Positions 4,921-40,682 of a stretch of 46,523 nucleotides of DNA are shown here, one piece after another. Location: the IMG/VR virus record IMGVR_UViG_3300048913_000213, one strand, 5' to 3'. How positions within the stretch are numbered: position 1 is the stretch's first letter; every line of letters starts with the position of its first letter. The notes under the pieces are model-generated. The model was given only the letters and a program-made list of their open reading frames with translations, was not told where the DNA came from and searched no databases. The DNA comes from a virus. Position numbers and translations under genes: made by a program.

Positions 4921-5160
4921 ATGGCAGAGGGCATGTTGAAGGAGGAGCTGCGGGAATGGAAGCAACATCCTGTTACGCAGCACTTCTTGTCGCTAATCCA
5001 GCAGTCTCGTCAAGAGACGATGGAAGCATGGGCGAACAAGGCATATGTCGGCGAGACGGCGGAAGCTACTCTCGCGGCGAACACGGCAGCACTAGGCGGT
5101 ATGCAAGTGCTGGATCAAGTTATTGAACTGATTGATTCGATGGGGAGTGAAGAAGCATGA
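4921..5160 (+). CDS. Hypothetical head-module protein (79 aa)
   Basis: ORF with an AGGAGAAAAAGCT-ATG leader. Its end forms an ATGA overlap with the next gene. Confidence 0.6.
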   Translation: MAEGMLKEELREWKQHPVTQHFLSLIQQSRQETMEAWANKAYVGETAEATLAANTAALGGMQVLDQVIELIDSMGSEEA

Positions 5161-5558
5161 ATGCAGATGCTAAAGCAGTAGCAGGATACGATCCACGGCA
5201 AGCCGTGAAAGGCGAACGTGGCTGGCGCGCGGCCAAAGGTCCACAAGCCAATAACACTTCCGGCTTCCGGGCCACCGGCCATCGCTTGCTGCTGCTGAGC
5301 GATGCTGTTGAGGAAGTCACTTCTGGCGGCATTGTCTTGGCCAAGAAAACCATCGACAAAGAACGCTCCGCGAATGTCTATGCGACTGTGGTTGAAATCG
5401 GCCATGACGCCTGGAGCGACAAATCAACAGACTTCTGCGAAGTCGGTGATCGCGTCCTCATTGGCCAGTACACCGGCAAGTTCCAAGTCTCCGAACGTGA
5501 CGGTAAAGAGTACCGCTTCGTGACGGATCTGGATATTATCAGCACCGTCGAAAAGTAA
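5157..5558 (+). CDS. GroES/Cpn10-like co-chaperonin with an N-terminal extension
   Basis: The C-terminal ~95 aa align by eye to GroES: HRLLLLSDAVEEVTSGGIVLAKKT...ATVVEIGHD...VGDRVLIGQYTG...DGKEYRFVTDLDIISTVE, compared with RVIVKR..SAGGIVL...GEVLAVGNG..VKVGDIVIF...ILAIVE. Confidence 0.75.
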   Translation: MNADAKAVAGYDPRQAVKGERGWRAAKGPQANNTSGFRATGHRLLLLSDAVEEVTSGGIVLAKKTIDKERSANVYATVVEIGHDAWSDKSTDFCEVGDRVLIGQYTGKFQVSERDGKEYRFVTDLDIISTVEK

Positions 5559-5568
5559 CCATAACGGG

Positions 5569-5594
5569 GCCACATTACGGCTGAGTAATGTGAC
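5569..5594. repeat. PIR copy 2
   Basis: GCCACATTAC-ggctga-GTAATGTGAC followed by TCCATAAT. Starts 10 nt after the GroES-like stop and ends 32 nt before the scaffold ATG. Confidence 0.9.
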
Positions 5595-5626
5595 TCCATA
5601 ATCCCCCTAGTTAAAGGAGCTTTACC

Positions 5627-11586: not shown

Positions 11587-12984
11587 ATGCGACTTCCAGT
11601 TGCCTGCCGCATCGCTACTCGTGACGGCACCCTGACAAAAGACTCCAAGATGGTGAACTGCTTCTCTGAAGCCGACCCTGACGGCGGCGTGAATGTGGTG
11701 AAGCGGCCAGGGACGGCCCTTGTCCAGAGCTTTGGTGCGTCCGTGGCACAAGTCGGATTCGCTACCGGCGGGGCTGCATTTGGCGTCTTTGGCGATACGA
11801 TCCGTGGCCTCAATGTTGGCTTCACTCTGGCGCTGCCTTCTCCGGTGCTGCCAAATCTTCGAATGAAGGCCTCGGATGCGAACTTCCTACCCAGCAATAC
11901 CGGGATCAGCTTCATCAAGAGCACCCGCGCGGCATGGGCTTTCGACTTGGCGAGCTTCGGCGTGACCAAAGTCACGGATGCGGATTACCCTTCCCAGACT
12001 GTCCCAGGCTTCGCCTACCTCGACGGCACCTATTACGTGATGGATGCGACTGGCATCATCTACGGGTCCGACATCGAGAACTCGCTGTCGTGGAATGCAC
12101 TGAATTTCATCGCAACTGATCGGGGGCTGGGCATTGCCATCAGCATCACCCGGCACCTCAACTACGTGCTGGCGCTGTGCGACTTCGGATTGCAGTTCTT
12201 CTACGACGCGGCAAATGCCACGGGCAGTCCGCTGCTCCCAATGCCGAATAGTACCTGCACTGTGGGCTGCGCCCATGCGGATAGCGTGGCCAGTATCGAA
12301 GACATGACCATTTTCATGTCGAAGAATCGCCAACGTGGTCGGAGCATCTCCGCGATCAGCGGGCTGGGAGTTCAGGCAATCTCGACCCCCTTCATCGATA
12401 AGATCCTCAACAACGATGACCTGTCTTCGGTGTGGGCTTACGGCATCCGCGTGGCAGGCCATTCGTTTTATGTCTTGACCCTCGGGACCAGCAATGTGAC
12501 CCTTGTCTGCGACCTCACCTCCCATGAGTGGGTGCAGTGGGCTTCTGGGGCTTCCGGCAACTCCGCCTTCAATGGTGCCTTCTACTGTCACGCCGAGGGC
12601 AACGCCCTCCCGGCCACGCAGGACTTGCTGCTCAACCCTACTAACGGCTCGGTTTACAGCTTCCTGCCCTCGACCTACACCGATGTGGAAAGCTCCATTT
12701 GGTGCCAAATCGATACCCCGATCTGGGATCAAGGCACCATCGACAGTAAACGTATTGCTCGGGTCAACCTCATTGGGGATACTGTCAACTCCAGTGTTGC
12801 AATGTCCTACAGCAAGGACGATTATCAAACCTATTCAACTCCGGTGTCGATTGACATGTCGACTGAGCGCAAGCTCGCAACCCGCCTCGGCAGAAGTCGT
12901 CGTCGCAGTTTCCGCCTGACCCACAACGCGAACACTCCGCTGCGGCTGAAGGCGATTGAAATCCACCCGGACCCAACAGTTTAA
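11587..12984 (+). CDS. Tail hub protein, P22 gp10-like (packaged-DNA stabilisation protein)
   Basis: 465 aa, similar in size and position to P22 gp10. The C-terminal pattern RRRSFRLTHNANTPLRLKAIEI resembles the gp10 end as I remember it (RRLIGFKLRVITKSPVTLSGCQIRLE). Recalled from memory, not aligned. Confidence 0.45.
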   Translation: MRLPVACRIATRDGTLTKDSKMVNCFSEADPDGGVNVVKRPGTALVQSFGASVAQVGFATGGAAFGVFGDTIRGLNVGFTLALPSPVLPNLRMKASDANFLPSNTGISFIKSTRAAWAFDLASFGVTKVTDADYPSQTVPGFAYLDGTYYVMDATGIIYGSDIENSLSWNALNFIATDRGLGIAISITRHLNYVLALCDFGLQFFYDAANATGSPLLPMPNSTCTVGCAHADSVASIEDMTIFMSKNRQRGRSISAISGLGVQAISTPFIDKILNNDDLSSVWAYGIRVAGHSFYVLTLGTSNVTLVCDLTSHEWVQWASGASGNSAFNGAFYCHAEGNALPATQDLLLNPTNGSVYSFLPSTYTDVESSIWCQIDTPIWDQGTIDSKRIARVNLIGDTVNSSVAMSYSKDDYQTYSTPVSIDMSTERKLATRLGRSRRRSFRLTHNANTPLRLKAIEIHPDPTV

Positions 12985-12997
12985 AGGAACCTCTATC

Positions 12998-13954
12998 ATG
13001 AGCCTATTGAGCAGTATTGGCAGCGTTGCTGGTGGCCTGATCGGAGGCCCAGCCGGTTCGGCGATCGGCGGTTTGCTGGGTTCTGCCCTTGGCGGAGATG
13101 GCAAAGGCTCGACCGGTAGCGGAGCTTCGCCTGCAGCGGTAGCCGATCCCTTTGCTTCGCAACGCCCGCAGTACCAAACCCAGCTGAACGACTTCATGAA
13201 GACGGCTTCGGGGAGCAGTGCGGCGCTGCAACAGCAACAACAAATCGCACAGTACAGCGGCCTTGATCCGAATGCTTCGAACACGATGCGCGGCATCATG
13301 AACCTTGGCGGTACGGACGCCGGGAATCAGCTCGCCGCTATGACCGCGCCGGGAGCGAAGTTCGACTCCAGCGACCCGAGCTACCAATTCCGCTTCGACC
13401 AGGGCCAGCAAGCCGTGCAACGAAGCGGTGCGGCAAAAGGCCTGCAGGGCAGTGGGAATATCCTGATGGCTCTGCAGGACTACGGGCAAGGCGCGGCTTC
13501 ACAAGAGTACCAAGCCCAATTCAACCGTCTGTCGTCGCTGGCGCAGTATCAGCAGGGCTACCAAGCCCAGCAATACAACCAAGCTCTGCAGTTCAACAAC
13601 CAGAACCTCAGCGCTCTGGGACAGCAGTTCAACCAGCAAGGTCAAATCTACGGTCAGCAGGAAAACAGCTACCAGAACGAGTACGCTCGGCTGGCACAGC
13701 TCGCTGGTGCGAACATCGGTTCTCCGGGCCAAGCGGGTCAGCTGCAACAGCAACAGCAAGCGGGAGCGGCTGCATTTGCGCAATCCGTCACCCCGGCGAT
13801 TTCGGATCAGATCAAGAGCTGGTTCGGACCGTCGAGCGGTAGTGGCAGCAGCGGCAGCGGCTCCAACCCGTTCATCCCTTCGTCGATTACTCCGGTTGAC
13901 AGCAGCTACAACAGCGGCTTCAGCTTCACGCCGGAAGTCTTCACGAGTAGCTGA
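12998..13954 (+). CDS. Internal virion or ejection protein candidate with a glycine zipper and a Q/N-rich region
   Basis: Start moved to ATG 12998 to avoid overlapping the hub gene. N-terminus is SIGSVAGGLIGGPAGSAIGGLLGSALGG. It is followed by long Q/N/Y-rich low complexity and an SGSGSSGSGS tract. Confidence 0.45.
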   Translation: MSLLSSIGSVAGGLIGGPAGSAIGGLLGSALGGDGKGSTGSGASPAAVADPFASQRPQYQTQLNDFMKTASGSSAALQQQQQIAQYSGLDPNASNTMRGIMNLGGTDAGNQLAAMTAPGAKFDSSDPSYQFRFDQGQQAVQRSGAAKGLQGSGNILMALQDYGQGAASQEYQAQFNRLSSLAQYQQGYQAQQYNQALQFNNQNLSALGQQFNQQGQIYGQQENSYQNEYARLAQLAGANIGSPGQAGQLQQQQQAGAAAFAQSVTPAISDQIKSWFGPSSGSGSSGSGSNPFIPSSITPVDSSYNSGFSFTPEVFTSS

Positions 13955-13961
13955 TTTCGGG

Positions 13962-13987
13962 GCCACATTACGGCTGTGTAATGTGGC
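13962..13987. repeat. PIR copy 4
   Basis: GCCACATTAC-ggctgt-GTAATGTGGC, perfect, flanked by GATTTCGGG and TCTAAAACC. Ends 30 nt before the ATG at 14018. Confidence 0.9.
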
Positions 13988-14017
13988 TCTAAAACCCTTA
14001 CCTTTTCGGACTCTTTC

Positions 14018-15418
14018 ATGGACCTGAACGCCGCTTTCCAAACCTTCGCGGCGGCCCAAGTGGCCGGCCAGCAGATTAATGCCGACTTGCAGTCCAAGCG
14101 GGAGGAGAGCGACCTCCGGCAGCAACAACTGCAAGCGGCGAAATTCCAACTGTCGTCGCAAATGCAGCAGCAAGAGCAGCAACAGCGCTTCCAGCAAGAA
14201 TCGCAAAAGCTCATTGCGGAGCATGATTCGGCACTGAAACAGCAACAAGTCAACTCCGGCACGGCGCCGGATGATGCTGCTGAGGCTCAGCTCACTTCCA
14301 GTATCGACATGTACCAGAAGCAAGCCTCTGCGGCGATTCGCTCGGGGCTGCCTTCGACTGCTGAGCAGTACCAAAAGCTTGCCGATGCCGCGCAGAGCAA
14401 ACTCTCGACCATCCGCAAGGACAACTTCGCTATCGCAGAGAAGAAGGTCAAATCCACGGCGGCATTCGCTGGATCGGTGCTGGATGGCAGTGTGGATGCG
14501 CAGCAAGCGTTTGCCTGGGTCAAGGATAATGTCGGGCTCAAAGAGGCCTTGGCGATTCCGACAGACCCGGCGAAAGCTAAGCTCTACTGGCAGGCAGCGC
14601 AGAAGCAAGGAGTGAGCGCAGAGACTCAAATCCAGAACCAAATCCATGTGGCCGAGGTCGCGGAGCGGGAGAAGCGCCTCGCCCAAGATCACGCTGACAC
14701 GCAGGAAGACCGTCGGATTCGTCGTGCAGAACTCGCCGCGAGTCGTGAAGCAAACCTGGAGATGCGCAAAGCTAACCTCGAGCTGCGGCAAAAGCAGTAC
14801 GAAGAGGGCGGCGCGATCCAACGTCGCCAGACAATTGCTGCCACAAACTACGCAAACGAAACCGCTCGAGGCCTGAACCTCGTTTCCAGTCTCGGTGCGA
14901 ATCAAACTGTCGGTGTGTTCGCCCACATGCAGAATCCTGACACGATCCTCAAGTCCCTCGAGAGCACTGGTACGAACAAGCTCACAGGTGAAATGGAGCA
15001 AATTTACCAGACCGCGACGAAGGGCTTAGGGCTGGAACTCGCTCAGCTCGCAACTGCAGGCAGCGGTCGCGCTCCGGTCAAGGATCTGATCAACGAAATG
15101 GGCACCATGGTCGAGGCTCGGAAGGGCGATACGGAGCTGGAAATCATGTTCAAACTCGCTAATGCAGCGGACTTTGCAAAGGTCCGGCTCGAAGCCGTTC
15201 CTGATAGCCCCGACCCGAAGATCCAGGCTATTCGCAAAAAGGCGGAAGAGGAGCTGTCGAAGTTCCCGCATCCGTCTCAAGTGGTTGCGCTGGCCATGAA
15301 AAAGGGCGCGAAGCTCCAAGGCAAAGCCCGGATCGAGTCGCTGCGGGAAAAGCTCGACCGCTCCACGGCCTCGGAAGCCCCAAGCGACATCGCCGACCTT
15401 CTCAACAAGTACAAATAA
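14018..15418 (+). CDS. Internal virion or ejection protein candidate (coiled coil)
   Basis: 466 aa, Q/A/E/K-rich and helical. Its position corresponds to P22 gp7/20/16 or the T7 gp14-16 block. Confidence 0.45.
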   Translation: MDLNAAFQTFAAAQVAGQQINADLQSKREESDLRQQQLQAAKFQLSSQMQQQEQQQRFQQESQKLIAEHDSALKQQQVNSGTAPDDAAEAQLTSSIDMYQKQASAAIRSGLPSTAEQYQKLADAAQSKLSTIRKDNFAIAEKKVKSTAAFAGSVLDGSVDAQQAFAWVKDNVGLKEALAIPTDPAKAKLYWQAAQKQGVSAETQIQNQIHVAEVAEREKRLAQDHADTQEDRRIRRAELAASREANLEMRKANLELRQKQYEEGGAIQRRQTIAATNYANETARGLNLVSSLGANQTVGVFAHMQNPDTILKSLESTGTNKLTGEMEQIYQTATKGLGLELAQLATAGSGRAPVKDLINEMGTMVEARKGDTELEIMFKLANAADFAKVRLEAVPDSPDPKIQAIRKKAEEELSKFPHPSQVVALAMKKGAKLQGKARIESLREKLDRSTASEAPSDIADLLNKYK

Positions 15419-15430
15419 GGAACCTCAGCC

Positions 15431-17356
15431 ATGCCTGATATGACTGCTGCCTACGAGGCATTGCGCAAAGCGGATGCTGCTGGTGATACGACTAGCGCAA
15501 AGAAGATTGCGGATTACATCCGCAGCCAACCCGGTGCGGGGGAAAGCCCAAGCGAAGGAGTGCAAAGCGTTGCGGTGCACCCGGCGGAGATGGCTGCCGA
15601 GGCCGGGAAGGATGCCGGGAATTGGTTTTCGAGCAATGAGCCAGAAGACATGAGCCTGGGCAAGCTCGGTGGGGAGGTTGCTGGCGGGGCGGCAGGTGGC
15701 GCCGTGGCCGGTGCCGTGCTTCCGGGGACGCTGAAAGCAGCTGGCAAAGTCGTGCCGGGGGCTGTTGGGAAGCTCTTCAGCGGCCTCGGCGAGGCTGCGA
15801 GTGCTCTGCCGCTGAAGGAACGGGTGACGCGGGGTGCGGGTGGCGGGGCTGCAGCCGGTGCGGTGGATGCTACGGGCCGGGCTTTCGGCGCACCAAAAGC
15901 AGCAACCTTCGCCGGGGAAATGCTGGCCGGCGGGCTCGGAGAAACCGCGGCGAGCTTTCTGCAGAAAGAGGCATCGCAACTCGGCCGCTTTGTTGCGAAC
16001 ATCAGCTATGGGAATGTGGCTGGGGCCTCAAGGGCCCTCGGCGGGATGCTCAGTCCGAACCGCCCGCTGAACGAATCGGTGGCGCGAAAGCTCCAGCAGA
16101 AGCTTTTCGGAAACCCGACTGATTCGTATGTCGATGGTTTGGTGAGCAGTGATAACCGGATTGCGGTGCAGGAAGCGCTGCGGAAGGCTGATCCGAGCCT
16201 CAACAGTGGCGGTCCGAGGGCTGCGGATGCCCCGAGGGCACCTTGGGAGACCTCGACAGGGGAGATGGAGGGGCTCGGCCCGCTCTCACGCGGGACTGAT
16301 GTTGCGGCCGCAGGCGGCGCGTCGCGCAATCCGCTGACCCCACCGGTTGCGATTGGTGGGCCAAAGGCACTGCCAGGACCGCAAAGCGGTGGCGCGGGCT
16401 CCGACAGAGCTTCCGCAAGCGGAAGTGCCGGTGCGGCGGAGCGCTTCGCTGCAGGCAAAGCCGGTGCGAAAGCTAAAGCCGAGGCGACTGCTGAAGCAGC
16501 GCGCAAGGCTGAAGCCGATGCCGCGGCCAATGCGATGCGGCCAGCATCAGCCATCTACCGTGAGCGGATGCAAGCCGGGGTGACAGAAGCCGTGAAGCAA
16601 GGGAAGACTTTTTCCTCGACGCCGGAGTTTGCGACACTGAGCGAGAAGCTTGGGGCGATGGAGCAGCTGGGGAGTATCACGAAAGCGGACAGGGAGCGGC
16701 TGCTCAAGACGCTGAGCGCGGACAGACTGAAGAATCCGCAAGTTCAAGAGGGGTATGCTAAAGCGGTGGACGATCAAATTCGGAACTGGGGCAAGCCAGC
16801 TGAAAGCGGCGGGCAGACCGGCGCGGCTGCAGTAAGCGCGAAGACGGCTGAGGAGGTGCGCGGGGCACTGCGTGAAGCATACAATGGCTACACTGCGAGG
16901 CTGGGCATGGGGGATATTGAGAAAAAGTACCGCAATGCCTATTCGCAGGAAATGATCGCGCAAGCCAAAGACGAGCTGCCGCACTTCCTTTATGGGTTTG
17001 GCTCGACGCAAGAGTTCCAAAAGATGGCTCGGAATCTTGCGCGCGATCCTGAAGGACTGCCGTTCATCCAGAAAGCGATGGCGCAACACCTCGCACAGCA
17101 AGAGCCGAAGGCTATCACGAAGGAGTTTGAGCGGTTGCAGAAGGTGCTTGTGGATAGCAAATTGGCGACGCCGACGGAGCTGCGACAGCTACGGGTGAAT
17201 GCGGAGACGGTGCAGCGAGCGAGCGAGCGCGGCGAGGGCTCGGTGGTGAAGCTGGGGCAGCGGTTCCAGCAGTTGCTGTTGATGGCGATGGCGCGGAATG
17301 CGGCTGCAGCGGGCGGGCAGAAGGTGGCGGGGGCACAGGGAGAGGGGCGGGAGTAG
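15431..17356 (+). CDS. Internal virion or ejection protein candidate (Ala/Gly-rich)
   Basis: 641 aa with long A/G-rich N-terminal tracts and a helical C-terminal half. It is the last gene before non-coding island A. Confidence 0.45.
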   Translation: MPDMTAAYEALRKADAAGDTTSAKKIADYIRSQPGAGESPSEGVQSVAVHPAEMAAEAGKDAGNWFSSNEPEDMSLGKLGGEVAGGAAGGAVAGAVLPGTLKAAGKVVPGAVGKLFSGLGEAASALPLKERVTRGAGGGAAAGAVDATGRAFGAPKAATFAGEMLAGGLGETAASFLQKEASQLGRFVANISYGNVAGASRALGGMLSPNRPLNESVARKLQQKLFGNPTDSYVDGLVSSDNRIAVQEALRKADPSLNSGGPRAADAPRAPWETSTGEMEGLGPLSRGTDVAAAGGASRNPLTPPVAIGGPKALPGPQSGGAGSDRASASGSAGAAERFAAGKAGAKAKAEATAEAARKAEADAAANAMRPASAIYRERMQAGVTEAVKQGKTFSSTPEFATLSEKLGAMEQLGSITKADRERLLKTLSADRLKNPQVQEGYAKAVDDQIRNWGKPAESGGQTGAAAVSAKTAEEVRGALREAYNGYTARLGMGDIEKKYRNAYSQEMIAQAKDELPHFLYGFGSTQEFQKMARNLARDPEGLPFIQKAMAQHLAQQEPKAITKEFERLQKVLVDSKLATPTELRQLRVNAETVQRASERGEGSVVKLGQRFQQLLLMAMARNAAAAGGQKVAGAQGEGRE

Positions 17357-17363
17357 TTATGGA

Positions 17364-17389
17364 GTCACGTTACTAGAAAGTAATGTGGC
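17364..17389. repeat. PIR copy 5 (flipped variant)
   Basis: GTCACGTTAC-tagaaa-GTAATGTGGC with left flank TTATGGA. This is the reverse orientation of the GTGAC-TCCATAA variant. Confidence 0.8.
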
Positions 17390-17413
17390 CCACTAACTCG
17401 CCGTCATTACCAT

Positions 17414-17439
17414 GCCACATTACGGCGCGGTAATGTGAC
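17414..17439. repeat. PIR copy 6
   Basis: GCCACATTAC-ggcgcg-GTAATGTGAC followed by TCCATAATGG. Confidence 0.9.
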
Positions 17440-17946
17440 TCCATAATGGACCGAGCGGCGGAGCTTTTGCGTAGCGAAAGGCAAGACAGCTCGGCTCCGG
17501 GGCGCTCCTCTACCCCGCCGCTACCCTGCCGACGATTCGCGGCGAGCTAGCCGGCGGTCGCCCTAGCGCAAGCGGGGGATTGGGCTGAAGGAAGAAGAAG
17601 AGGAGCGCGGCGGGTGGAGGCATGAGCGGGAGCGGGCCTCCGATCTAGCTTTCGCTCCGCAAAAGTTCACGCGCAACTTATAAGAAGAAGCGCGACGCGG
17701 CGACAGCTTAAGAAGAGCAGCGACCCCCTTATAAGAGGCCGCCGCCGAGCCCGGAGCTAGCCGCGCCCACCCCCTTAAGAAGGTGTGCAGGAGGGGGGGA
17801 GGCAACCACAATCCTATTGTAATGATTTTCGACCTCCGTGTCAAGAGCTAACCTGATGCGCCCCGGTTGACCTCCGCAACAGCCGCCGCGACACTTCTTC
17901 TTAAGGGGGTGCGGGCGTGGCTGAGCGGCCCTCGTCCCATTTTCGG

Positions 17947-17972
17947 GCCACATTACACCGGCGTAATGTGGC
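17947..17972. repeat. PIR copy 7
   Basis: GCCACATTAC-accggc-GTAATGTGGC, perfect, flanked by ATTTTCGG and CCCATAAC. Ends 27 nt before the ATG at 18000. Confidence 0.9.
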
Positions 17973-17999
17973 CCCATAACTACTACGGAGTACTTCAGT

Positions 18000-19319
18000 A
18001 TGCGAATTCTTCTCATCGATGCGACCTCTTCCTTCCTCGATTTCGCCCTTCGCTGCGAAGCAGCAGGCCACGAGGTCCGCGTTTTCATGGGTCCGACGAA
18101 GCGCGGCGACCGCTCAACTGTTGGCGATGGCCTCATCACCCGCGTCGCGGACTACAAGCCCTCGATGCAGTGGGCGGACCTCATCCTCACCAGCGACAAT
18201 GCCAAGTACATTCGAGAATTGGAGGGCTTCCGGGCGCGTGGCTTTCCGATCTGGGGCTCAAATTCCGAGTGCACTGCTTGGGAACTCGATCGGGATTGCG
18301 GCCAGCGGGTTCTTGAGACTGCGGGGATAGCCACAATCCCGTCGCACTGCTTCAGCAACTATGACAAGGCCGCGGAGTTTGTGCGCTCGACGCTCAAGCG
18401 CTACGTGTCGAAACCTTCGGGGGATGCGGACAAGGCTTTGTCCTACGTGTCGAAAGGGCCGGCTGATTTGATCTTCATGCTCGAGCGTTGGAAGTCCTCG
18501 CTCAAGTCCAAAGCCCCCTTCCTGTTGCAGGAATTCATTCCTGGGATCGAAATGGCCGTAGGCGGATGGGTCGGACGCAACGGGTTCAGCCGGCACTTCC
18601 TCGAAAATTTCGAGTTCAAGAAACTGATGAACGGTGAAATCGGCGTCAACACCGGGGAAATGGGCACTGCAATGCGCTATGTCAGTGCCGAGGATAGCAA
18701 GCTCGTCCGAGAGATGCTGCTCCCACTTGAAGCCGAACTCATTCGCTGCGGCTACACCGGCTTCATCGACGTGTCCGTGATCATCGACAAGAAGGGGCAG
18801 CCTTGGCCTCTGGAGTTCACGACTCGCCCCGGCTGGCCATTGTTCCAGATTCAGCAAGCGCTCCATCCTGAGCCTTGCGAGTGGATGCTCGGTGCTCTCA
18901 ACGGCAAGGACACGTTCGAGCCCCTTCCGGACATCGCAGTTGGGGTTGTGCTTGCCATCCCGGATTTCCCTTACACGACCCTCCTCAACAAGGAAGTCAG
19001 TGGCTTCCCGGTGTGGGGGATTACCCCTCGCAATCGCTACTGGCTGCATCCGGCCGAAATGAAGCTCGGCAAGGCTCCGGTGATGGAAGGCGGGAAGCTC
19101 ATCGAAAAATCGATGATGGTTACTGCAGGGGATTACGTGATGGTTTGCAGTGGGATTGGTGGCACCGTCGAGGAGGCCCGAGGCGAAGCCTATGCTCGGG
19201 TCCAGGAAATCGAACTGCCCAACAGCCCGATGTACCGCACGGACATCGGCTGCCGATTGGAAAAGCAACTCCCAGAACTCCAAGCTCTGGGCTACGCAAC
19301 TGCATGGGAGTACAAGTAA
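18000..19319 (+). CDS. PurD-like (phosphoribosylamine-glycine ligase family) ATP-grasp enzyme
   Basis: 439 aa, colinear by eye with PurD over its full length: MRILLIDATSS.., LQEFIPGIEMAV (compare IEEFLDGEE), NGEIGVNTGEMGT (compare GPNTGGMGA), TGFIDVSVIIDKKGQPWPLEFTTRPGWP (compare TGFLYAGLMID..PKVIEFNCRFGDPE), and GDYVMVCSGIGGTVEEARGEAY (compare GGRVLCVTALG.TVAEAQ). Confidence 0.8.
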   Translation: MRILLIDATSSFLDFALRCEAAGHEVRVFMGPTKRGDRSTVGDGLITRVADYKPSMQWADLILTSDNAKYIRELEGFRARGFPIWGSNSECTAWELDRDCGQRVLETAGIATIPSHCFSNYDKAAEFVRSTLKRYVSKPSGDADKALSYVSKGPADLIFMLERWKSSLKSKAPFLLQEFIPGIEMAVGGWVGRNGFSRHFLENFEFKKLMNGEIGVNTGEMGTAMRYVSAEDSKLVREMLLPLEAELIRCGYTGFIDVSVIIDKKGQPWPLEFTTRPGWPLFQIQQALHPEPCEWMLGALNGKDTFEPLPDIAVGVVLAIPDFPYTTLLNKEVSGFPVWGITPRNRYWLHPAEMKLGKAPVMEGGKLIEKSMMVTAGDYVMVCSGIGGTVEEARGEAYARVQEIELPNSPMYRTDIGCRLEKQLPELQALGYATAWEYK

Positions 19320-20780
19320 ATGGCTACGAAAGTTATCATCTGCCCGCCGCCCCCAGCGGTACAGTCTGGGCTGTCGACTGCAGGTGTTGGGGGTGACGGC
19401 GGGTTTTCGAGCGCAGCAGTAACAGCAGCGGCGCAACAACCTCTAACAGGACTGCCGGCGAGTCCCGGCTCCAGCACGAGTGGCTTCAACTCCCCCGCAT
19501 GGCAGGGCTGGTTCTCGCAGGTCTACAACCAGCTCAAGGGCCAATTCGTTACAACGAATGCGGTTGCTGACAATGCCAATGGCAATGCCAGCACTGCTCT
19601 GGCAAATGCCAATGCGGCTCTGGCACAGGCCAATGCGGCAATCGCCGGGCTCGGAGCAAAGCTCAATCGCAGCGCCGCAGACGTGCTGTCGGGGGCGGTG
19701 AATGTGCTGAATGGAGGTGGGTTCGTCGCCGGGACTCTGACTTGGGACACCGCCGGCAACAGGACCGGGGGCTACGGTACTGCTATGACCCCGAATGGCA
19801 TTGCGGCGTATGCCCCTTCCGGCACCCCGACTTTCGCAATTGACAGCAGCGGCAATGCCTACTTCGCCGGCAGCCTCGGAGCCGCAAGCGGAACCTTCAG
19901 CGGCACCCTCATCAGTGTGAATGGTACGTTCACCGGAACTTTGACCGGCACGACCATTACTGGCTTGACAGTGAATGGCGGTACGATTCAAGGCGGTACG
20001 TTCCAGACGAACTCCACGGGGCAGAGAGCTGTGATGAACTCTCTCGGCCTGTCGTGCTACGATGGCGGGAACAATCTGATCTTCCAGGCGAACCAAACTG
20101 GGGTGTACGCTTCGGTGTCGTCGAGTGCCGTGGCTCCGGCGGGGGACTTCCGCACAGCTAGCAATACGTCCGGGGCGGCATTGAGCGCTCAGGCCAGTGG
20201 CAGTGCAGCGGCATTGAACGTAACGGCTGGGACGGGGGACGGCATCAAGCTCGATGGCCGCATCACCACTATTGCCAGGGCAGGGGGCGTGAGTAACGCC
20301 GTGATGAATTCGGTCATTGCGGTGACGGATAATGCCTACCAGTGCGGGTTTACCGGAGCGCGCTGGGCGAATGTCTATGCCGCCAACGGCACAATTATTA
20401 CTTCGGACGAGAGGCTGAAGGAGAACTTTGCCGAGTGTGAATTCGGCCTCGACATGGTGCTGGCAGTGACTCCATACCAGTACACGATGAAGATCGGGCA
20501 GAATATCGTATCGGAGGATGGGGACGGCAATCCAGTGGTGACGCCTCGCAAGGGAGAGCGCATCAAATACGGCTGGAAGGCTCAAGACGTGAAGGCATTC
20601 ATCGGGGATCGGAATTTGTCGATGTGGTCGCTGGAAGACAAAGACGATCCAGAGTCGATTCAGTCTCTGACTCCGACGGAACTCATTCCGGTGCTGTGGA
20701 AAGCAGTGCGGGAACTGAAAGCCGAGGTGGATCAACTAAAAGCAGCAGCGGCTTCGGCCGTCGCAGGCGGAGGTGTGTGA
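19320..20780 (+). CDS. Tail fibre or spike with a C-terminal S74 intramolecular-chaperone autoproteolytic domain
   Basis: 486 aa with beta-helix-like repeats GTFSGTLISVNGTFTGTLTGTTITGLTVNGGTIQGGTF. The S74 signature TSDERLKEN starts near nt 20403, followed by ...YGWKAQDV...LIPVLWKAVRELKAEVDQLK. The ATG directly abuts the ATP-grasp stop codon. Confidence 0.85.
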   Translation: MATKVIICPPPPAVQSGLSTAGVGGDGGFSSAAVTAAAQQPLTGLPASPGSSTSGFNSPAWQGWFSQVYNQLKGQFVTTNAVADNANGNASTALANANAALAQANAAIAGLGAKLNRSAADVLSGAVNVLNGGGFVAGTLTWDTAGNRTGGYGTAMTPNGIAAYAPSGTPTFAIDSSGNAYFAGSLGAASGTFSGTLISVNGTFTGTLTGTTITGLTVNGGTIQGGTFQTNSTGQRAVMNSLGLSCYDGGNNLIFQANQTGVYASVSSSAVAPAGDFRTASNTSGAALSAQASGSAAALNVTAGTGDGIKLDGRITTIARAGGVSNAVMNSVIAVTDNAYQCGFTGARWANVYAANGTIITSDERLKENFAECEFGLDMVLAVTPYQYTMKIGQNIVSEDGDGNPVVTPRKGERIKYGWKAQDVKAFIGDRNLSMWSLEDKDDPESIQSLTPTELIPVLWKAVRELKAEVDQLKAAAASAVAGGGV

Positions 20781-21091
20781 TGGGAGCAGCTGATTTTTGG
20801 GCCGACGGCCAGTGGAACTTCTTCTGCGACTTTTGTGGTCGCAAGGAAAAGAGTGGCAACGCCATGAAGACCTGGAACAACTTCCGAGTGTGTCGTCGGC
20901 ACAAGGAAGTCAGGAATCCGCAGGACTTCGTGCGGGGCGTGAAGGACGATCAGACTGTGCCGTGGAGCCGGCCGGAAGCACCGGATACTTTCGTGCAAAG
21001 TAATTTTCAACTGTTGCTGGAAGGGGGCGGGGGCGCATTGATGCAAGAGCCCGATTCCTTCGGCGACCTTTACCCTTTGTTGGTGACCTGA
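20780..21091 (+). CDS. Small Cys-rich protein (103 aa), possible fibre accessory or assembly factor
   Basis: The ATG at 20780 overlaps the TGA of the fibre gene. CxxC...C..H pattern: FFCDFCGRKEKSGNAMKTWNNFRVCRRHKE. Confidence 0.5.
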   Translation: MGAADFWADGQWNFFCDFCGRKEKSGNAMKTWNNFRVCRRHKEVRNPQDFVRGVKDDQTVPWSRPEAPDTFVQSNFQLLLEGGGGALMQEPDSFGDLYPLLVT

Positions 21092-26710: not shown

Positions 26711-26929
26711 CCCGAATTACTTGGAGGGTGGAAGAGGGTACTGGGACGGATTGGGGGTTATTGGAGCCCGAAATAGAGGCCCGCCACGCGTTCGGAGGGG
26801 GTGGCTGGTAGGACAGTCTAGGGAGGGGTGTTTGCGAGGCGTGGCGGGGGCAATCCGTCGAAATTTGCCGCATGGCGGGCGGGGGAAATGGGCCGGATTT
26901 TCACCGGCCCGGTGCGGGAGAGTTATCGC

Positions 26930-26955
26930 GCCACATTACACAGCCGTAATGTGAC
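26930..26955. repeat. PIR copy 10
   Basis: GCCACATTAC-acagcc-GTAATGTGAC followed by TCCATAAC, with left flank AGTTATCGC. Confidence 0.9.
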
Positions 26956-26963
26956 TCCATAAC

Positions 26964-27413
26964 TTAAATCCATTCACCTGTGAGGTTGTGGTAGGCAACT
27001 ACGAACTCCCATTCCCATCTGGCCAGCTTAGCTTCCCATTCAGACTTGCCCTGATAAAGACAAGTCTTGACTCCTCGGTAAATCCCCTCGGCACGCCAGC
27101 GAACTCCTTTCTCGCAATAGACCCCCTTAGTGCCAGATGTGTTGCTTCTTCTCAGATCTTTTTGATTCATAGATTGTGTAGCTCTATCAGCCCATCGACA
27201 ATTTTCAGGACTATAGCCTTTATCATTATCGATTCTATCCAGACTAACCTCTAAGGAAGGACGTTCCCCCATATCAGCTAGAAAGTTGTCAAAACTATCC
27301 CAGTGAGCCGCATAGCGAATACCTCGTCCGCCGTAATCCTGATATCTATCGTTGTTTGGATTATTGCATCTTTGTCGCATAGCCCACCAGGATCTGTACG
27401 TAGGGTTTTTCAT
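26964..27413 (-). CDS. HNH endonuclease with an AP2 DNA-binding domain (free-standing homing endonuclease)
   Basis: Start set at ATG 27413, with GAAGGA upstream and lying just after the polymerase stop. Motifs: YGGRGI...SLDRIDNDKGYSPENCRWA..TQSMN (HNH_3-like) and SGTKGVY..GVRWRAE.. (AP2-like). Markedly AT-rich. Confidence 0.8.
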   Translation of the reverse strand: MKNPTYRSWWAMRQRCNNPNNDRYQDYGGRGIRYAAHWDSFDNFLADMGERPSLEVSLDRIDNDKGYSPENCRWADRATQSMNQKDLRRSNTSGTKGVYCEKGVRWRAEGIYRGVKTCLYQGKSEWEAKLARWEWEFVVAYHNLTGEWI

Positions 27414-27418
27414 ATCCT

Positions 27419-29809
27419 TCACTGGCAATCTCCCCAGCTCTTCGTGGAACTGACCACACCAACAGGGACAATCATCGGCGTAGCATATGGCAGAACAATC
27501 TGGCTTTCTTCCACAATCCGACGCAAAGCCCAATCCCCATGGTGGGTTTCGAATTGCCCAGCGAGCGAATCGTGTACCTGCAACAAGACCTCGACCTCTG
27601 GAAGATTGTTGTCGATATTCTCGTAGGCACGGTTAATCAGACAGCCTACCGTGGATTGCGGAATCCAAGCAACAGCCTGATTGAACACGTTCCCCTCGAT
27701 CCGGTCGAAGAAGTGGAACCGATAGCCGAAGACGTTTTGAATCCAGCGGCGACCGGAGACTTGTTTTTTGATTTCGTCCTGCCATGCTTTGATTTCAGGA
27801 CACAAGCCGAAGTACCACTTCTGAATCCGTTCGACTTCCTTCACGATCAAGCCGATCCTCGGGCTAATCCCTTCCGGGGTGCCGAGGTAATTAGTGCCAT
27901 GGCACAGTGCTTTAAACATCGCATACTCCCGAGGATGCGAGTTCTTCGTCATCGAAGGATTCCTGTAATACTCCTTCATCACCTCGACGTAAGGCTTCCT
28001 TCCGGCAGTGAATTGCTCCAGCATCCATTTGCAGCCACTCTCACCAGTGACAACTCGCAAATCTGCGCTGTCCAGGTCGATATCGAAGAACGTGTGACCT
28101 GGATCTGGAATGTACAGTGTACGAATGTTCGGCAGCTCAAGCCCTTCGTCCTCAGTCTCACCGCCTTTCGGAATGTTTTGGAGGTTTGCACCTGTTCCAA
28201 AAGCGTTCTTAGCGGAAGCGAATCGGTAGGTATCTGTTCCGCAGACGTTAAAGCTCGTACGCATGCGCCCGTCGGTATCCAATGGGGCTGAAACAAAGGT
28301 AGAGTGAAATACCCCAAGAGAACGCAACTCAGCGATTTTGCGGGTAACAGGGGCCAGGATGGGTTCTCTGGAAGCGATACGGTGAAGGGCTTCGTCATCG
28401 GTCGTCACTCCTTTCGTCTTGCGGTTGATGATGGGGCGCATCCCCATCTGACGGTAAAAGAAGTCCGCCATTTGCTTTGGGGATTTGATGTTGAGAGAGG
28501 AACCGGTTACATCGGCCAGCCACGCCTCGCGGGAGGCCACCTCGGCCATGAGTTCCATGGCGAATTGAGCGCGGCGCTGCATGTCCACTCGGAGGCCGCG
28601 ATTCATGGTTTTGAGGACGCGGGGGGCGAGGCGTTGCTGGAAGTCATCCACGGCTTGCAGCCCCATGGCAGAGACGACTTTGGAGAGGACTTCCTCGATG
28701 GCGAGAGTCCGCACGGCGTCGGTGCAATTGTAAATCCAGTACTTGTCTTCGCCCTCACCTTTCGGGCCTTCAGTCCAATTGGTACGGTCGTCTTTCCAAT
28801 AGAGGTGGTCGTCCAGGTACATTGAGGAAAGGAACGCAAGGTTCTTTTCCATGTTGGAGAAGCACGAGTGCTGCTGGATCATCGTGTCCTTGACGGAAGG
28901 GCAGATGAAGTGCCACCAACGATAGAAGTACTGCGCGTCGTAGTTCCAGTTCTGGCCTACGATAGTCACGAGTAAACAGAGCTGGTAAATCAGGAACACG
29001 AGTTCGGCTTCTTCGGCCTCAGACCAATAGCCTTCGGCTTTACCGGATTGCATAAACGGAATGCAGAAGGCTTCAGTCTTGGACTTCGCAAAGGCGATGC
29101 AGGAAATGTGGCCGGCACGAGTCTCGATGTCGCCGCCGATCTTACGGCGTTCACCTGTGACTGCGGTGTGGGCTTTGGCGAGGGCGATGTAAGACAGCAG
29201 CTCGGCTTTAGCCTGTTCAAAGGTTGGCCGAATGAGGAAGTCATACTTCGGACGATTGATCACGGGGGTTTTGCTCTCGCGCAGTGCTCTCCGCAGATCA
29301 TGAACAATCAGCGGCCGCAATTTCCACTGCGCCATCACTTGGTTTGGGTTGATCGTCGGGATGACCTTCACGCCAGGGCAGAGCGTGCTTTCCATTACGC
29401 TCGATCGCCAGTCCTTCGCGCCCCATTCGCCGGTTAATGCCCACAGCCCGAGGTTCCCGAATGTCAGCACCACGTTAGGCTTGAGGCGTTCGATTTCGGC
29501 TTTCAGGACCTGACGCGCGGCGAGGACTTCCGGTGTCGCCCACTTCCCATCAACGAGTTGGTGGTGGCCGAAGATGACTTCCTTTTTCTTCAGTGCGAAG
29601 AGGCTTTCGATCTTGCCTTGCTGGACGCGGCCGCGCATGACCATCGTTGCGGAGCAGTCCTCGAAGAAGAATCCGGCTTCTTTGCACATCTTTTTGAGTT
29701 CGAAGCCGGCTCCGCCGATGAAGGGCGTAGAGTTGAGCAGGTCTTGTTCGTGGGGCCATTCACCGACGATCAGGATCTTGGCATTGGCGCGTTCGATTGG
29801 GTGGATCAT
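27419..29809 (-). CDS. Family A DNA polymerase with 3'-5' exonuclease and an N-terminal UDG (family 4/5)-like domain
   Basis: Start at ATG 29809 in an ATGA overlap with the upstream ORF. UDG-like: ILIVGEWPHEQDLLNSTPFIGGAGFEL...VIPTINPNQV. Exo motifs: GGDIET, NWNYDAQY, YNCTDA. Pol motifs: DLDSADLRV (A), KALCHGTNYLG (B), LLQVHDSL (C). Confidence 0.9.
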   Translation of the reverse strand: MIHPIERANAKILIVGEWPHEQDLLNSTPFIGGAGFELKKMCKEAGFFFEDCSATMVMRGRVQQGKIESLFALKKKEVIFGHHQLVDGKWATPEVLAARQVLKAEIERLKPNVVLTFGNLGLWALTGEWGAKDWRSSVMESTLCPGVKVIPTINPNQVMAQWKLRPLIVHDLRRALRESKTPVINRPKYDFLIRPTFEQAKAELLSYIALAKAHTAVTGERRKIGGDIETRAGHISCIAFAKSKTEAFCIPFMQSGKAEGYWSEAEEAELVFLIYQLCLLVTIVGQNWNYDAQYFYRWWHFICPSVKDTMIQQHSCFSNMEKNLAFLSSMYLDDHLYWKDDRTNWTEGPKGEGEDKYWIYNCTDAVRTLAIEEVLSKVVSAMGLQAVDDFQQRLAPRVLKTMNRGLRVDMQRRAQFAMELMAEVASREAWLADVTGSSLNIKSPKQMADFFYRQMGMRPIINRKTKGVTTDDEALHRIASREPILAPVTRKIAELRSLGVFHSTFVSAPLDTDGRMRTSFNVCGTDTYRFASAKNAFGTGANLQNIPKGGETEDEGLELPNIRTLYIPDPGHTFFDIDLDSADLRVVTGESGCKWMLEQFTAGRKPYVEVMKEYYRNPSMTKNSHPREYAMFKALCHGTNYLGTPEGISPRIGLIVKEVERIQKWYFGLCPEIKAWQDEIKKQVSGRRWIQNVFGYRFHFFDRIEGNVFNQAVAWIPQSTVGCLINRAYENIDNNLPEVEVLLQVHDSLAGQFETHHGDWALRRIVEESQIVLPYATPMIVPVGVVSSTKSWGDCQ

Positions 29810-29988
29810 GCAGGCACCTTGCACTTCCCCCGGCACACCGGGCATACACGGCTGTTGCCGACTCGCAGTCCACGGCCCACGAACACGGTGCCAGTGCCGT
29901 AGCAGTTTTTGCACCGCACCAGAGCAACCGGTGCGGTGCCTTCCGCAAGCGCTTCATCGCGCTTTTCTATAGCTTGTTTGATTGTCAT
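29806..29988 (-). CDS. Small DnaJ-type zinc-finger-like protein (60 aa)
   Basis: CKNCYGTG...CPVCRGKC, i.e. two CxxCxGxG-like knuckles. Translationally coupled to the polymerase. Confidence 0.55.
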   Translation of the reverse strand: MTIKQAIEKRDEALAEGTAPVALVRCKNCYGTGTVFVGRGLRVGNSRVCPVCRGKCKVPA

Positions 29989-29992: not shown

Positions 29993-31375
29993 TTACCCCA
30001 TCAGACCTTTGAGTTCATCCGCCAGAGCTTGGCCACTCGTTACGTCCTGCGGGCGGTTGAGTTCCTGCAGACGCTTGTACCCCATCGCGTAATACTCGGG
30101 GTTGAGTTCCAGGCCGATGCCCTTGCACTTTTGCTGATCCGCCGCTGGGAAGATCGTGCCACTACCGCTGAAGCAGTCCAGCACCGTGTCGCCGGGCTTG
30201 ACGCTGCGCTGCAAGAGTTGCACGAACAGCTCAACAGGCTTCTGAGCCCCGTGCGTGAGGTTGTCGTCGGCGTAGCTGGTCAGAACGTCCGGGTAGATGG
30301 CGGTGGTTTTCTTGTGCCCTTTGATTGCGTACAGCAGAGTTTCGTACTGGCGGCGTGGGCCTTCGAATGGCAGAGGCACACGACCGCTTCCAGGTTTTGT
30401 GCAAATGAAAGGCGTTCTGAACACATACCAGCCCGCGTCCTGCATCATGCGCTTCAGCTCGTGGAAGTTGTCGATGTCGCAAAAGACATACGCATGAGCT
30501 TCGCGCTTCGCCACCCGGAACGACAACGGGCACCACGCTGTCATCAGTTCTTTCCAATGGGCATAGTCGTCTTTGTAATGGTGTTCATTGTTGGCCAGAC
30601 GACCGCCGCCACCGTCACCGAAGCTATCAGCACCCATACCGTAAGGAGGATCAGTAAGAATAACATCGACGCTCTCTTCAGGCGCCGTTGCCATCCACTG
30701 GAGACAGTTGATATGATGCGCTTCGTGGATGCTGCTGGAGTACGTGGCGCCGACGGTGGCAGCGAGGCGAATGTTCTGCTGTTGCGTCTCTTGCTTTTTG
30801 AGGATTTTGAATGCTTCGTTGACATCTTTGGCCTTTGCGACTTCAGGGTTGTGGGTGTGCTGCGCGACGATGATCTGGCGGCGGATGATTTCTTGATTGG
30901 AGCCCTCGCTCGATCCACGAACCTCCACAGCCGTGTCGGCGACAGCATGGACGCGGCCTTCGGCTTGGGCTTGCTGCGACCGGATGCGGTGGAGTTTGGC
31001 GATTGCAGCGGCCTCGTCCTGCCAATTGAGGGCTTTGCGGCGGATGTTTTCTTCGAGCTCCGCTTCTTCCGCTTGCAGCGGGGTGAGGTCGCCGAGGCTG
31101 ACGAACGGGAGGTAGCCTTCAGGAATGGCTTGGTTGTTATAGCGGAGGGTGCCACCGAGCGCCCACAAGTTTTCGATGGCTTTGATACGGGTTTCCCCCG
31201 CGACGAGGATCTTGCGCACAGGCTCACCCGGTGCATCACGCATCACCGGAGCGTGCAGCAAGCCCTTGCTGAGAATGCCTTCGGACATTTCCTGAATGAA
31301 GGCCGGATCGAATTCCTTGCGCTGCCTGTCGGATTCGATGATGATGTCAGAACGTTTAATGAGTTGGGGTTGCAC
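29993..31375 (-). CDS. ParB-like N-terminal domain fused to an N6-adenine/N4-cytosine DNA methyltransferase (beta class)
   Basis: 460 aa from a GTG start. ParB-like N-terminus (IIIESDRQRKEFDPAFIQEMSEGI..GLLHAPVM), catalytic ILTDPPYG, and a C-terminal SAM motif VLDCFSGSGT. Confidence 0.85.
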   Translation of the reverse strand: MQPQLIKRSDIIIESDRQRKEFDPAFIQEMSEGILSKGLLHAPVMRDAPGEPVRKILVAGETRIKAIENLWALGGTLRYNNQAIPEGYLPFVSLGDLTPLQAEEAELEENIRRKALNWQDEAAAIAKLHRIRSQQAQAEGRVHAVADTAVEVRGSSEGSNQEIIRRQIIVAQHTHNPEVAKAKDVNEAFKILKKQETQQQNIRLAATVGATYSSSIHEAHHINCLQWMATAPEESVDVILTDPPYGMGADSFGDGGGGRLANNEHHYKDDYAHWKELMTAWCPLSFRVAKREAHAYVFCDIDNFHELKRMMQDAGWYVFRTPFICTKPGSGRVPLPFEGPRRQYETLLYAIKGHKKTTAIYPDVLTSYADDNLTHGAQKPVELFVQLLQRSVKPGDTVLDCFSGSGTIFPAADQQKCKGIGLELNPEYYAMGYKRLQELNRPQDVTSGQALADELKGLMG

Positions 31376-33167: not shown

Positions 33168-33193
33168 GCCACATTACGGCGGAGTAATGTGGC
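33168..33193. repeat. PIR copy 11
   Basis: GCCACATTAC-ggcgga-GTAATGTGGC, perfect. Lies 4 nt downstream of the ATPase stop (33198 on the minus strand). Confidence 0.9.
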
Positions 33194-40656: not shown

Positions 40657-40682
40657 GCCACATTACTCGGCGGTAATGTGGC
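40657..40682. repeat. PIR copy 13
   Basis: GCCACATTAC-tcggcg-GTAATGTGGC, perfect, flanked by CATTTTGGA and CCTATAAC. Confidence 0.9.

Follow-up and report, generated by a model that had tools for sequence, protein, structure and literature searches.

The virus record IMGVR_UViG_3300048913_000213 of IMG/VR, a DNA of 46,523 nucleotides (the whole of which is called the window in the following), carries on its plus strand an open reading frame (ORF; 18000..19319, ATG start, 439 aa plus stop) whose product resembles PurD, the phosphoribosylamine-glycine ligase or glycinamide ribonucleotide (GAR) synthetase of purine biosynthesis. In this study, we show that the product is a full-length four-domain (N, B, A, C) PurD homolog and that it is not a GAR synthetase ortholog. 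Judged by its residues, the ligase is best explained as a descendant of PurD that no longer makes glycinamide ribonucleotide. Its distribution is best explained if it is the clade-defining gene of a large group of P22-like podoviruses, uncultured plus some temperate.

Genome and gene layout

The termini of the window share an exact direct overlap of 127 nt (1-127 = 46397-46523), and the window therefore is a complete, circularly closed phage assembly of 46,396 unique bases. The plus strand encodes, in this order, the terminase, the portal, a GroES-like protein, a Mu gpT-like capsid protein, a P22 gp10-like hub, three low-complexity proteins (332, 466 and 641 aa) and, behind a non-coding island, the PurD-like ligase, which is followed by a tail fibre with an S74 domain, a small Zn-ribbon-like protein, a K1-lyase_C protein, an endolysin and a holin. 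Genes for UDG-PolA, ParB-methylase, AAA_24, PD-(D/E)XK and Pif1/RecD helicase proteins lie on the opposite strand. This gene order confirms the location in the late virion block to which the initial annotation had assigned the ligase. Co-transcription of the ligase gene with ejection-protein, fibre and lysis genes is the best explanation of the arrangement.

The tail hub (11587..12984, +) matches the PHROG annotations 'head closure Hc3' and 'packaged DNA stabilization protein', and the orthologous gene of a relative (L096) matches PF11134 Phage_stabilise. It is the anchor of a conserved cassette. Between hub and island (12956..17356, +) lie three genes encoding putative ejection or internal virion proteins, the first with a Gly-zipper N-terminus (12956-13954, +), the second at 14018-15418 (+) and the third at 15431-17356 (+). 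Apart from a weak Gly-zipper match, the three low-complexity products belong to no Pfam or PHROG family; their putative identity as ejection proteins is taken from position, size and composition. Their placement after a gp10-like hub resembles what we take to be the arrangement in P22.

The ligase gene has a Shine-Dalgarno sequence (GGAG, 17987-17990) 9 nt before its start. Its stop codon abuts the start of the fibre gene in a TAAATG junction (19317..19322, +; TAA 19317-19319, fibre ATG 19320), as had been reported, and the Shine-Dalgarno sequence of the fibre gene (GGGAG, 19306-19310), likewise 9 nt before the start, lies inside the final ligase codons. Both ORFs (18000-20780) share one reading frame with a single TAA between them, an arrangement found also in the relatives L048 and L053 and absent from most others. 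A conserved stop-codon read-through into the fibre was considered and rejected, and programmed read-through is unlikely: in-frame TAAATG occurs in a few loci only, and the others have TAATG, TGATG or short gaps. The fibre (19320..20780, +; 486 aa) carries a C-terminal Peptidase_S74 intramolecular-chaperone domain, matches tail-fibre and spike PHROGs, and begins with a Pro-rich anchor module (PPPP ... SPAWQGWFSQVYNQL).

Pfam and PHROGs scans of essentially all window ORFs longer than about 120 aa, which also identified fibre or spike proteins, revealed no enzyme of purine or nucleotide synthesis. The ligase stands as the one purine-type gene of the window, in agreement with the initial annotation. 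Its codon usage agrees with that of the remaining phage genes (relative synonymous codon usage, r = 0.82). Recent capture of the gene from a host was rejected on account of this phage-like codon usage and of the deep diversification of the family. No match to GenBank phages was obtained by megablast with 18 kb of the window, and tblastn returned one true relative, MW202796, in which the ligase gene is unannotated.

Homology to PurD

Searches with phmmer against PDB matched the ligase to eight PurD structures, with E values from 5e-17 (5vev, best) to 3e-7. A profile built from 71 family members matched PurD with E = 4e-57 over profile positions 1-411 of 426, the sole non-PurD match in PDB being Ddl (E = 1e-4). 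The AlphaFold (AF2) model of the ligase (pLDDT 89.9, pTM 0.89) predicts a compact enzyme without an added structural domain. When this model was compared to PDB by Foldseek, the top 15 matches were all GAR synthetases (query-normalised TM 0.68-0.76), followed by a second tier of PurK, biotin carboxylase, PurT and L-amino-acid ligases (YwfE/BacD, BL00235) at TM 0.53-0.64. Full-length colinearity with PurD had been proposed earlier; phmmer, the family profile and the model with its GAR synthetase matches all support it.

The phage ligase and PurD (E. coli 1GSO, A. aeolicus 2YW2, human GARS 2QK4) are homologous from end to end, have a common N-B-A-C fold and presumably share the acyl-phosphate ligase mechanism. 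They differ in that identity is about 21-25%, and in the virion-operon setting, the lack of pur-gene neighbours and the many intein-bearing members on the phage side. PurK, PurT, biotin carboxylase and the L-amino-acid ligases resemble the phage ligase in their three- or four-domain layout and in acyl- or carboxy-phosphate chemistry, but their sequences do not match the family profile significantly, and none is known from phage virion operons. These enzymes demonstrate that a PurD-like scaffold readily swaps carboxylate and nucleophile.

Against TIGR00877, the curated PurD equivalog, the ligase scored 71.8 bits and did not reach the trusted cut-off of 288. Among the Pfam domains, GARS_A was detected (32.5 bits; cut-off 27), GARS_C remained below threshold (31.7 versus 34.8) and GARS_N was undetected. 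Because of the sub-threshold TIGR00877 and GARS_C scores and the undetected GARS_N, the ligase is not classified as a GAR synthetase; most PurD-defining features tested are absent, while membership in the ATP-grasp superfamily holds. PHROGs and PADLOC searches with the ligase protein returned no family, placing it outside the known phage and defence families, and a fold search of BFVD gave generic ATP-grasp similarity only (TM at most 0.43), including viral tubulin-tyrosine ligase (TTL) and ATP-grasp proteins.

Catalytic core and substrate pocket

For comparison of individual residues, 75 diverse intein-free members (28-57% identity to the query) were aligned with Salmonella PurD. The roles of PurD residues were taken from studies of human GARS (PMC2978367) and A. 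aeolicus PurD (PMC8880213) and are given in E. coli/Salmonella numbering. The ATP-grasp region (B plus A; aa 102-278, 18303..18833, +), which is the Pfam GARS_A stretch, contains the conserved ATP, Mg and acyl-phosphate residues K138, E184, K207, E272 and R276. Among the ATP-binding residues of PurD, K145 corresponds to K138 (Lys in 73/75), E194 to E184 (Glu in 71/75) and K216 to K207 (Lys in 70/75), and K105 is replaced by Arg in 68/75. E95, the counterpart of the ATP/Mg residue E102, and P280, that of P294, are invariant (75/75 each). The Mg ligand E286 is retained as E272 (71/75) and the acyl-phosphate arginine R290 as R276 (72/75). Fold and key residues of an ATP-grasp enzyme are hence present: the Lys residues for adenine and phosphate, the hinge and ribose Glu and the acyl-phosphate Arg (K138, K207, E184 and R276) are 93-97% conserved across the 75 members. 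Retained as well are the NTG-x-MG A-loop, here N217-T-G-E-M-G222 (18648..18665, +; NTGGMG in PurD), and the C-terminal R-x-D-I-G motif.

The residues which bind the substrates in PurD are a different matter. In the motif E272-F-T-T-R-P-G-W-P-L281 (18813..18842, +), the counterpart of EFNCRFGDPE (Salmonella PurD 286-295), the Mg ligand Asn288 is replaced by Thr (T274; 69/75), the general base Asp293, which is also the ligand of the amine of phosphoribosylamine (PRA), by Trp or Tyr (W279 in the window; 66/75), and the glycine-binding Glu295 by Ala, Thr or Leu (Leu281 in the window). The alignment with Salmonella PurD reproduces the change from FNCRFGDPE to FTTRPGWPL which had been noticed in the initial annotation. 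Of the GGREH residues R11, E12 and H13 (Arg and Glu contacting PRA phosphate and ribose), the window has S, F and L, and the family has a variable residue, G/A and L, respectively. Arg383 of the PurD 'GGR', proposed to form the PRA phosphate site, is Tyr in 55/75 (Tyr379), and the acidic glycine-site residue Asp214 is Glu in 71/75 (E205). Two acidic residues appear where PurD has none: Gly229 is replaced by Glu (E220) in 67/75 and Tyr271 by Asp (D257) in 62/75. Altogether, the PurD phosphate-binding arginines are gone, acidic E220 and D257 are gained next to the retained E205, and aromatic W/Y279 and Y379 are gained. The motif change is one of several family-wide losses of PurD substrate residues, which strengthens the earlier suggestion of an altered substrate chemistry.

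The B-loop KPSGDADKA is one or two residues shorter than its counterpart KADGLAAGKG in PurD and follows the family consensus G-x-x-x-D-K; GLAAGK is described as 'conserved in all GARS' enzymes (PMC2978367). The GARS_C-like C domain (aa 314-418, 18939..19253, +) contains a 12-aa insertion relative to PurD. It is followed by a family-specific C-terminal extension that PurD lacks (aa 420-439, 'LEKQLPELQALGYATAWEYK', 19257..19316, +), in which about 17 residues (LP-x-L...G-Y) can be recognised family-wide, with L427 and G431 conserved in 95-97%. The position of D257 is presumably that of the first acidic Mg ligand of classic ATP-grasp enzymes (Ddl, biotin carboxylase), at which PurD has Tyr. It is plausible that D257 together with T274 compensates for the lost Asn ligand. 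The pattern of residues would fit an enzyme whose ATP-grasp machinery is intact and whose substrate pocket has been rebuilt.

Family, distribution and inteins

A search of a database clustered at 90% identity gave 2,576 matches, of which the best 120 all had at least 62% identity, many lying on contigs of 42-48 kb. Exhaustive searching of 50%-identity representatives yielded 217 clusters at E <= 1e-30, down to 28% identity, and at least 534 loci are found in IMG/VR. Scanning of 185,579 species genomes with two peptide patterns, which detect fairly close relatives only, revealed eight loci. Two of the eight are prophages in cultured Paraburkholderia strains, five lie on contigs of about 40-45 kb in metagenome-assembled genomes (MAGs), and the sixth of the remainder is a 2.8-kb fragment. 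The MAG loci, binned with Saccharibacteria (a 45-kb contig), Methylococcaceae, Elusimicrobia, Acidocella and Acidiferrales, look like phage genomes. The Paraburkholderia protein is named by its domain only at NCBI and 'phosphoribosylamine--glycine ligase' by UniProt and JGI.

A single intein or a pair of them, equipped with LAGLIDADG endonucleases (Pfam Hint_2, Intein_splicing, LAGLIDADG_3), extends many members to about 760-1120 aa, and some members accordingly align in two or three separate stretches. At least three intein sites occur in the homologs, with N217|T218, G222|T223 and T274|(T/C)275 all inside the A-loop and the E-x-T-x-R motif. The junctions show Cys1, a terminal (H/G)N and then T or C, and the extein halves are colinear with intein-free homologs; the gene of the window itself is intein-free. 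Intein-bearing homologs include P0099, P0041, P0126, P0124, P0174, P0183 and P0265, the last of which (1123 aa) holds two inteins. To our knowledge, inteins have not been described before in proteins of the PurD family. The sites that homing inteins invade are typically those of highest conservation and critical function in genes of importance. Their insertion in the catalytic motifs is consistent with an active enzyme that would be important to the phage.

One distant member, P0269 (523 aa), carries at its C-terminus a HAD-phosphatase-like module, about 90 aa long, with the motif GFDLDKTL. The homolog P0159 may be a fusion or an assembly artefact. Apparent fusions of the ligase with the upstream protein in L058, L061, L067 and L077 are not real; these genes have ordinary starts a few codons upstream.

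Conserved position in the virion gene block

In all loci examined for synteny (80 from IMG/VR, those of the species genomes and three additional contigs), the gene order proved invariant: the hub, large low-complexity proteins, the ligase, variable receptor-binding genes and lysis genes, with polA on the opposite strand. The ligase gene overlaps or abuts the upstream gene of 600-1450 aa (ATGA or TAATG) in 22 of 29 non-redundant loci with at most 56% identity. The branch with 26-28% identity retains both position and overlap of the ligase and has no adjoining fibre gene. Downstream, the next start follows within 20 nt or so in roughly 60% of the non-redundant loci. A conserved fibre-anchor gene, recognised by its opening module (L/V)PP(V/I)PP...W-x-(R/E)-W-(F/L), lies directly 3' of the ligase in 37/83 loci (45%; background 0.2% per ATG start), and the module is present in the fibre of the window. 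The oldest and most consistent linkage is that with the upstream cassette (hub plus putative ejection proteins), rather than with the fibre. The coupling to the tail-fibre gene that was initially put forward is consequently real as a junction and does not hold as the primary linkage.

The nearest named phages with this hub are EBPR podovirus 1 (EPV1) and Alcaligenes phage vB_Af_QDWS535; the fibre module was not found in the stretches examined of either. Among 39 non-redundant loci whose upstream sequence is long enough, 14 have a small gene for a GNAT acetyltransferase directly behind the hub: L001 (15936-16346), L083 (5160-5567) and 12 others. The Paraburkholderia prophages and MW202796 are among the 14. 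The GNAT gene is missing from the window and present in Alcaligenes phage QDWS535, which is without the ligase. In GNAT-bearing loci, GNAT and ligase, two amide-forming enzymes, flank the ejection-protein genes.

Upstream island, palindromes and other features

The non-coding island that separates the last ejection-like gene from the ligase gene (17357..17999, 643 nt) has PIR hairpins at both ends (two at 17357-17446, one at 17945-17974) and is rich in AAGAAG/CTTAAGAAG-type direct and inverted repeats. No ORF supported by homologs was found in it, nor any Rfam family or tRNA. On its minus strand lies a near-consensus sigma-70-like promoter (TTGACA-17-TACAAT, 17844 to 17816). Relatives with at least 59% identity have a gap of 47-671 nt at this position, with gaps of 300-670 nt among them (in L096, 6331-7000), and no counterpart of the island sequence was found in any relative. 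The island is a lineage-specific insertion in the closer relatives of the window, with a sequence unique to this genome; the initial annotation correctly placed an island before the gene, which is not a general feature of the family.

The PIR palindrome before the ligase gene, GGGCCACATTAC-ACCGGC-GTAATGTGGCCC (17945..17974), is perfect with a 12-bp stem. It ends 25 nt before the ATG, or 28 nt when measured from the 9-bp core, close to the 27 nt given previously. The core CCACATTAC-N6-GTAATGTGG has five exact copies in the genome versus 0 expected by chance (13963-13986, 17948-17971, 33169-33192, 40658-40681, 44746-44769), all intergenic, and at least six degenerate copies lie near 9-59, 5569-5602, 17357-17446, 26923-26964, 45883-45936 and 46405-46455. 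Lineage-specific hairpins of the form (A/G)TTAC-N6-GTAA(T/C) recur in the gaps of relatives and about 25-30 nt before the start codon; they precede the ligase gene in L002, L007, L012 and L027, and the version in L096 reads GGATTAC-AAAATA-GTAATCC. As the half-sites are conserved while the flanks co-vary, the data suggest that PIR serves as the operator of a dimeric phage regulator, or else as an RNA-processing or 3'-end hairpin.

Elsewhere in the genome, DNA polymerase A (27419-29914, -) carries at its N-terminus a UDG-like domain of family 4 (Pfam UDG, 1.2e-10), a fusion also seen in the relatives L096 and L098, and a ParB N-domain is fused to an N6/N4 DNA methyltransferase (29993-31375, -). 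A GroES-like Cpn10 gene (5157-5558, +) adjoins the portal and capsid genes and is likewise encoded by MW202796 and Alcaligenes phage QDWS535. The small Zn-ribbon-like protein (20777-21091, +) is without a Pfam family and has the motif W-x-x-G-x-W-N-F-x-C-x-x-C-G-x-K-x-K-S...K-T-W-x-x-F/Y-x-V-C. In many relatives this conserved gene sits after, or instead of, the fibre-anchor gene.

Discussion

Beyond what was observed (homology and fold, a retained catalytic core, lost PurD substrate sites, conserved synteny, and inteins in catalytic motifs), we infer an active, late-expressed carboxylate-amine ligase of the ATP-grasp type, which acts on a phage-conserved or universal substrate and whose role is tied to virion assembly or the initiation of infection. 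We consider the chances of this reading to be about even. ATP and Mg2+ would bind to the conserved grasp (K138, E184, K207, E272), with D257 and T274 standing in for the Asn ligand of PurD. A carboxylate, probably other than glycine, would be activated to an acyl-phosphate stabilised by R276, and the acyl-phosphate would then be attacked by an amine other than PRA. Since the pocket has lost phosphate-binding arginines and gained acidic and aromatic residues, it suggests a phosphate-free cationic amine as the nucleophile, for example a polyamine, the side chain of a lysine or the N-terminus of a protein. Phages assigned to widely different hosts share both the pocket and the gene position, from which we expect a substrate that is either universal or encoded by the phage. 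The most likely target would belong to the virion or its ejection apparatus, or be packaged together with it.

More specifically, the ligase could covalently modify an ejection or fibre-anchor protein during assembly, or could itself be packaged and ejected along with the DNA as an early effector; we put this forward tentatively, as one possibility. The modification might be, for example, an isopeptide or the addition of an amino acid that serves ejectosome or fibre function, and in many lineages ligase and GNAT of the same cassette might act jointly. ATP-grasp enzymes such as RimK, LysX/LysW, TTL-like and microviridin/graspetide ligases join amino acids or side chains to protein carboxylates or amines, an activity that would suit a gene surrounded by those of its possible protein substrates; beyond the superfamily they have no specific similarity to the phage ligase and provide a lead only. 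Enzymes that are encoded in virion gene blocks and enter the cell with the DNA have precedents in the T4 Alt ADP-ribosyltransferase, the N4 virion RNA polymerase, the transglycosylase domain of T7 gp16 and the P1 Dar proteins. The position near ejection genes is comparable; folds and chemistry differ.

Several observations weigh against the favoured reading. The near-universal Asn Mg ligand of ATP-grasp enzymes is replaced by Thr and the B-loop is remodelled, and activity could be altered or lost. EPV1 and vB_Af_QDWS535 have the same hub and do without the ligase. In P22, the slot between ejection genes and tailspike is, as we understand it, a hot spot for accessory genes (immI); if this holds here, position alone is no proof of a structural role. 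The C-termini of the upstream proteins vary and offer no C-terminal Glu of the LysW/RimK type, for which reason a model with such a conserved substrate residue in the upstream protein was rejected. Nor was a leader-like motif found in the neighbouring proteins or a conserved acceptor residue in the fibre module. The finding of family members in phage contexts only comes from pattern-limited scans which reach fairly close relatives. Finally, the HAD fusion of P0269, a single case, hints at a phosphorylated small molecule as substrate or product.

Some of these points lead to an alternative that we regard as possible, and no firmer than that: an active ATP-grasp ligase would work on a small molecule or host cytoplasmic precursor (e.g. 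a polyamine conjugate, a sugar-acid or envelope-precursor amide, a nucleotide-like metabolite), outside virion assembly and entry, with the late operon providing nothing but strong late expression. PurD and its nearest structural neighbours use small molecules, the phosphatase-like module of P0269 (FDLDKTL) is the best hint in this direction, no conserved protein acceptor motif was found, and the ligase-free sister phages presumably still build virions. On the other hand, constancy of pocket and position across the attributed hosts (Paraburkholderia and the Saccharibacteria, Methylococcaceae and Acidocella bins) restricts the choice to universal metabolites, and the genome contains no partner biosynthetic genes. 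Moreover, a stop/start overlap with an upstream structural gene, as found in most of the distant lineages, is unusual for an accessory metabolic gene, and the HAD fusion is known from one case.

It is improbable that the PurD fold was recruited as a pseudoenzyme, that is, as a virion component, fibre adaptor or chaperone which may bind nucleotide and does not ligate. Such a role would suit the structural-operon location with translational coupling to structural genes, the loss of the canonical Asn ligand with the remodelled B-loop, and the conserved C-terminal extension, which could serve docking. Pseudoenzymes, however, normally let ATP, Mg and acyl-phosphate residues drift, and here these are 93-100% conserved down to 28% identity. 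The pocket replacements, too, are conserved, which points to a binding site under selection, the inteins target exactly the ATP/Mg motifs, and the compact model leaves no extra structural domain.

Still less probable is a divergent but genuine phosphoribosylamine-glycine ligase, i.e. an auxiliary metabolic gene (AMG) boosting de novo purine synthesis. The best and only family-level matches are indeed PurD, the database labels of JGI and UniProt say as much, viral purD has been described as an AMG (PMC12647753, PMC11097641), and the ligase retains the Arg of the acyl-phosphate site together with one acidic residue at the glycine site (E205 for D214). Against this stand the TIGR00877 score, the family-wide loss of Asp293, Glu295, Arg11/Glu12, Arg383, the GLAAGK B-loop and Asn288, and a gene location in the virion block, apart from replication and nucleotide genes. 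In addition, channelling from PurF is assumed for PRA, whose half-life is about 5 s (PMC2978367), and the phage encodes neither PurF nor another pur gene. Among the roles named in the initial annotation, that of an 'ordinary AMG' agrees least with the evidence, and the doubt voiced in the initial annotation about a simple nucleotide-supply role is upheld by the lost PurD substrate sites and the virion-block setting.

Very improbable, lastly, is a late modifier of DNA or nucleotides that, like the product of the Mu late gene mom, would place an acyl or amino-acid group on a base or sugar around packaging: the ancestral substrate is a ribosylamine phosphate, the polymerase has an N-terminal UDG-like domain (as do SPO1-type polymerases of hydroxymethyluracil-DNA phages), the genome encodes a ParB-fused N6/N4 methylase and late expression would limit toxicity by analogy to Mom, but the Pfam/PHROGs scans revealed no dUMP/dCMP hydroxymethylase, 5-hmU kinase or deazaguanine genes, the loss of phosphate-binding arginines and the more acidic pocket are unfavourable for DNA or nucleotides, and the ligase has no DNA-binding domain.

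In the literature library that we searched, there was no PurD-like or ATP-grasp enzyme described in a phage virion, ejection, fibre or anti-defence context. Viral purD has been reported as a purine AMG in viruses of candidate phyla radiation (CPR) bacteria from acid-mine drainage (PMC12647753) and in snow phages (PMC11097641). These virome genes carry the same database label and are interpreted as purine synthesis, whereas the phage family described here has lost the PurD substrate sites and stands in a structural context. As one family member lies on a contig in a Saccharibacteria bin, some of the genes so reported may be members of the phage family. For the phage family, the label 'phosphoribosylamine--glycine ligase' is very probably wrong, and with hundreds of 50%-identity clusters and >500 IMG/VR loci such mislabelling could distort the metabolic reading of soil, peat and freshwater viromes.

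Enzymes of this class are familiar. New is a PurD subfamily that is repurposed and specific to phages, and it represents a clear evolutionary case of a core metabolic enzyme rebuilt around its conserved catalytic core for a phage-specific purpose. Ligase-bearing prophages in cultured Paraburkholderia, namely P. rhynchosiae WSM 3937 (WP_102635341.1) and Paraburkholderia sp. C35, make the function experimentally accessible. A conserved, intein-targeted enzyme whose gene is translationally coupled to those of ejection proteins and fibres throughout a highly diverse podovirus clade implies an unrecognised ATP-dependent step in virion assembly, entry or late infection. Should the virion-linked reading be true, a repurposed purine enzyme would carry out a previously unknown ATP-dependent post-translational step in the morphogenesis or entry of tailed phages.

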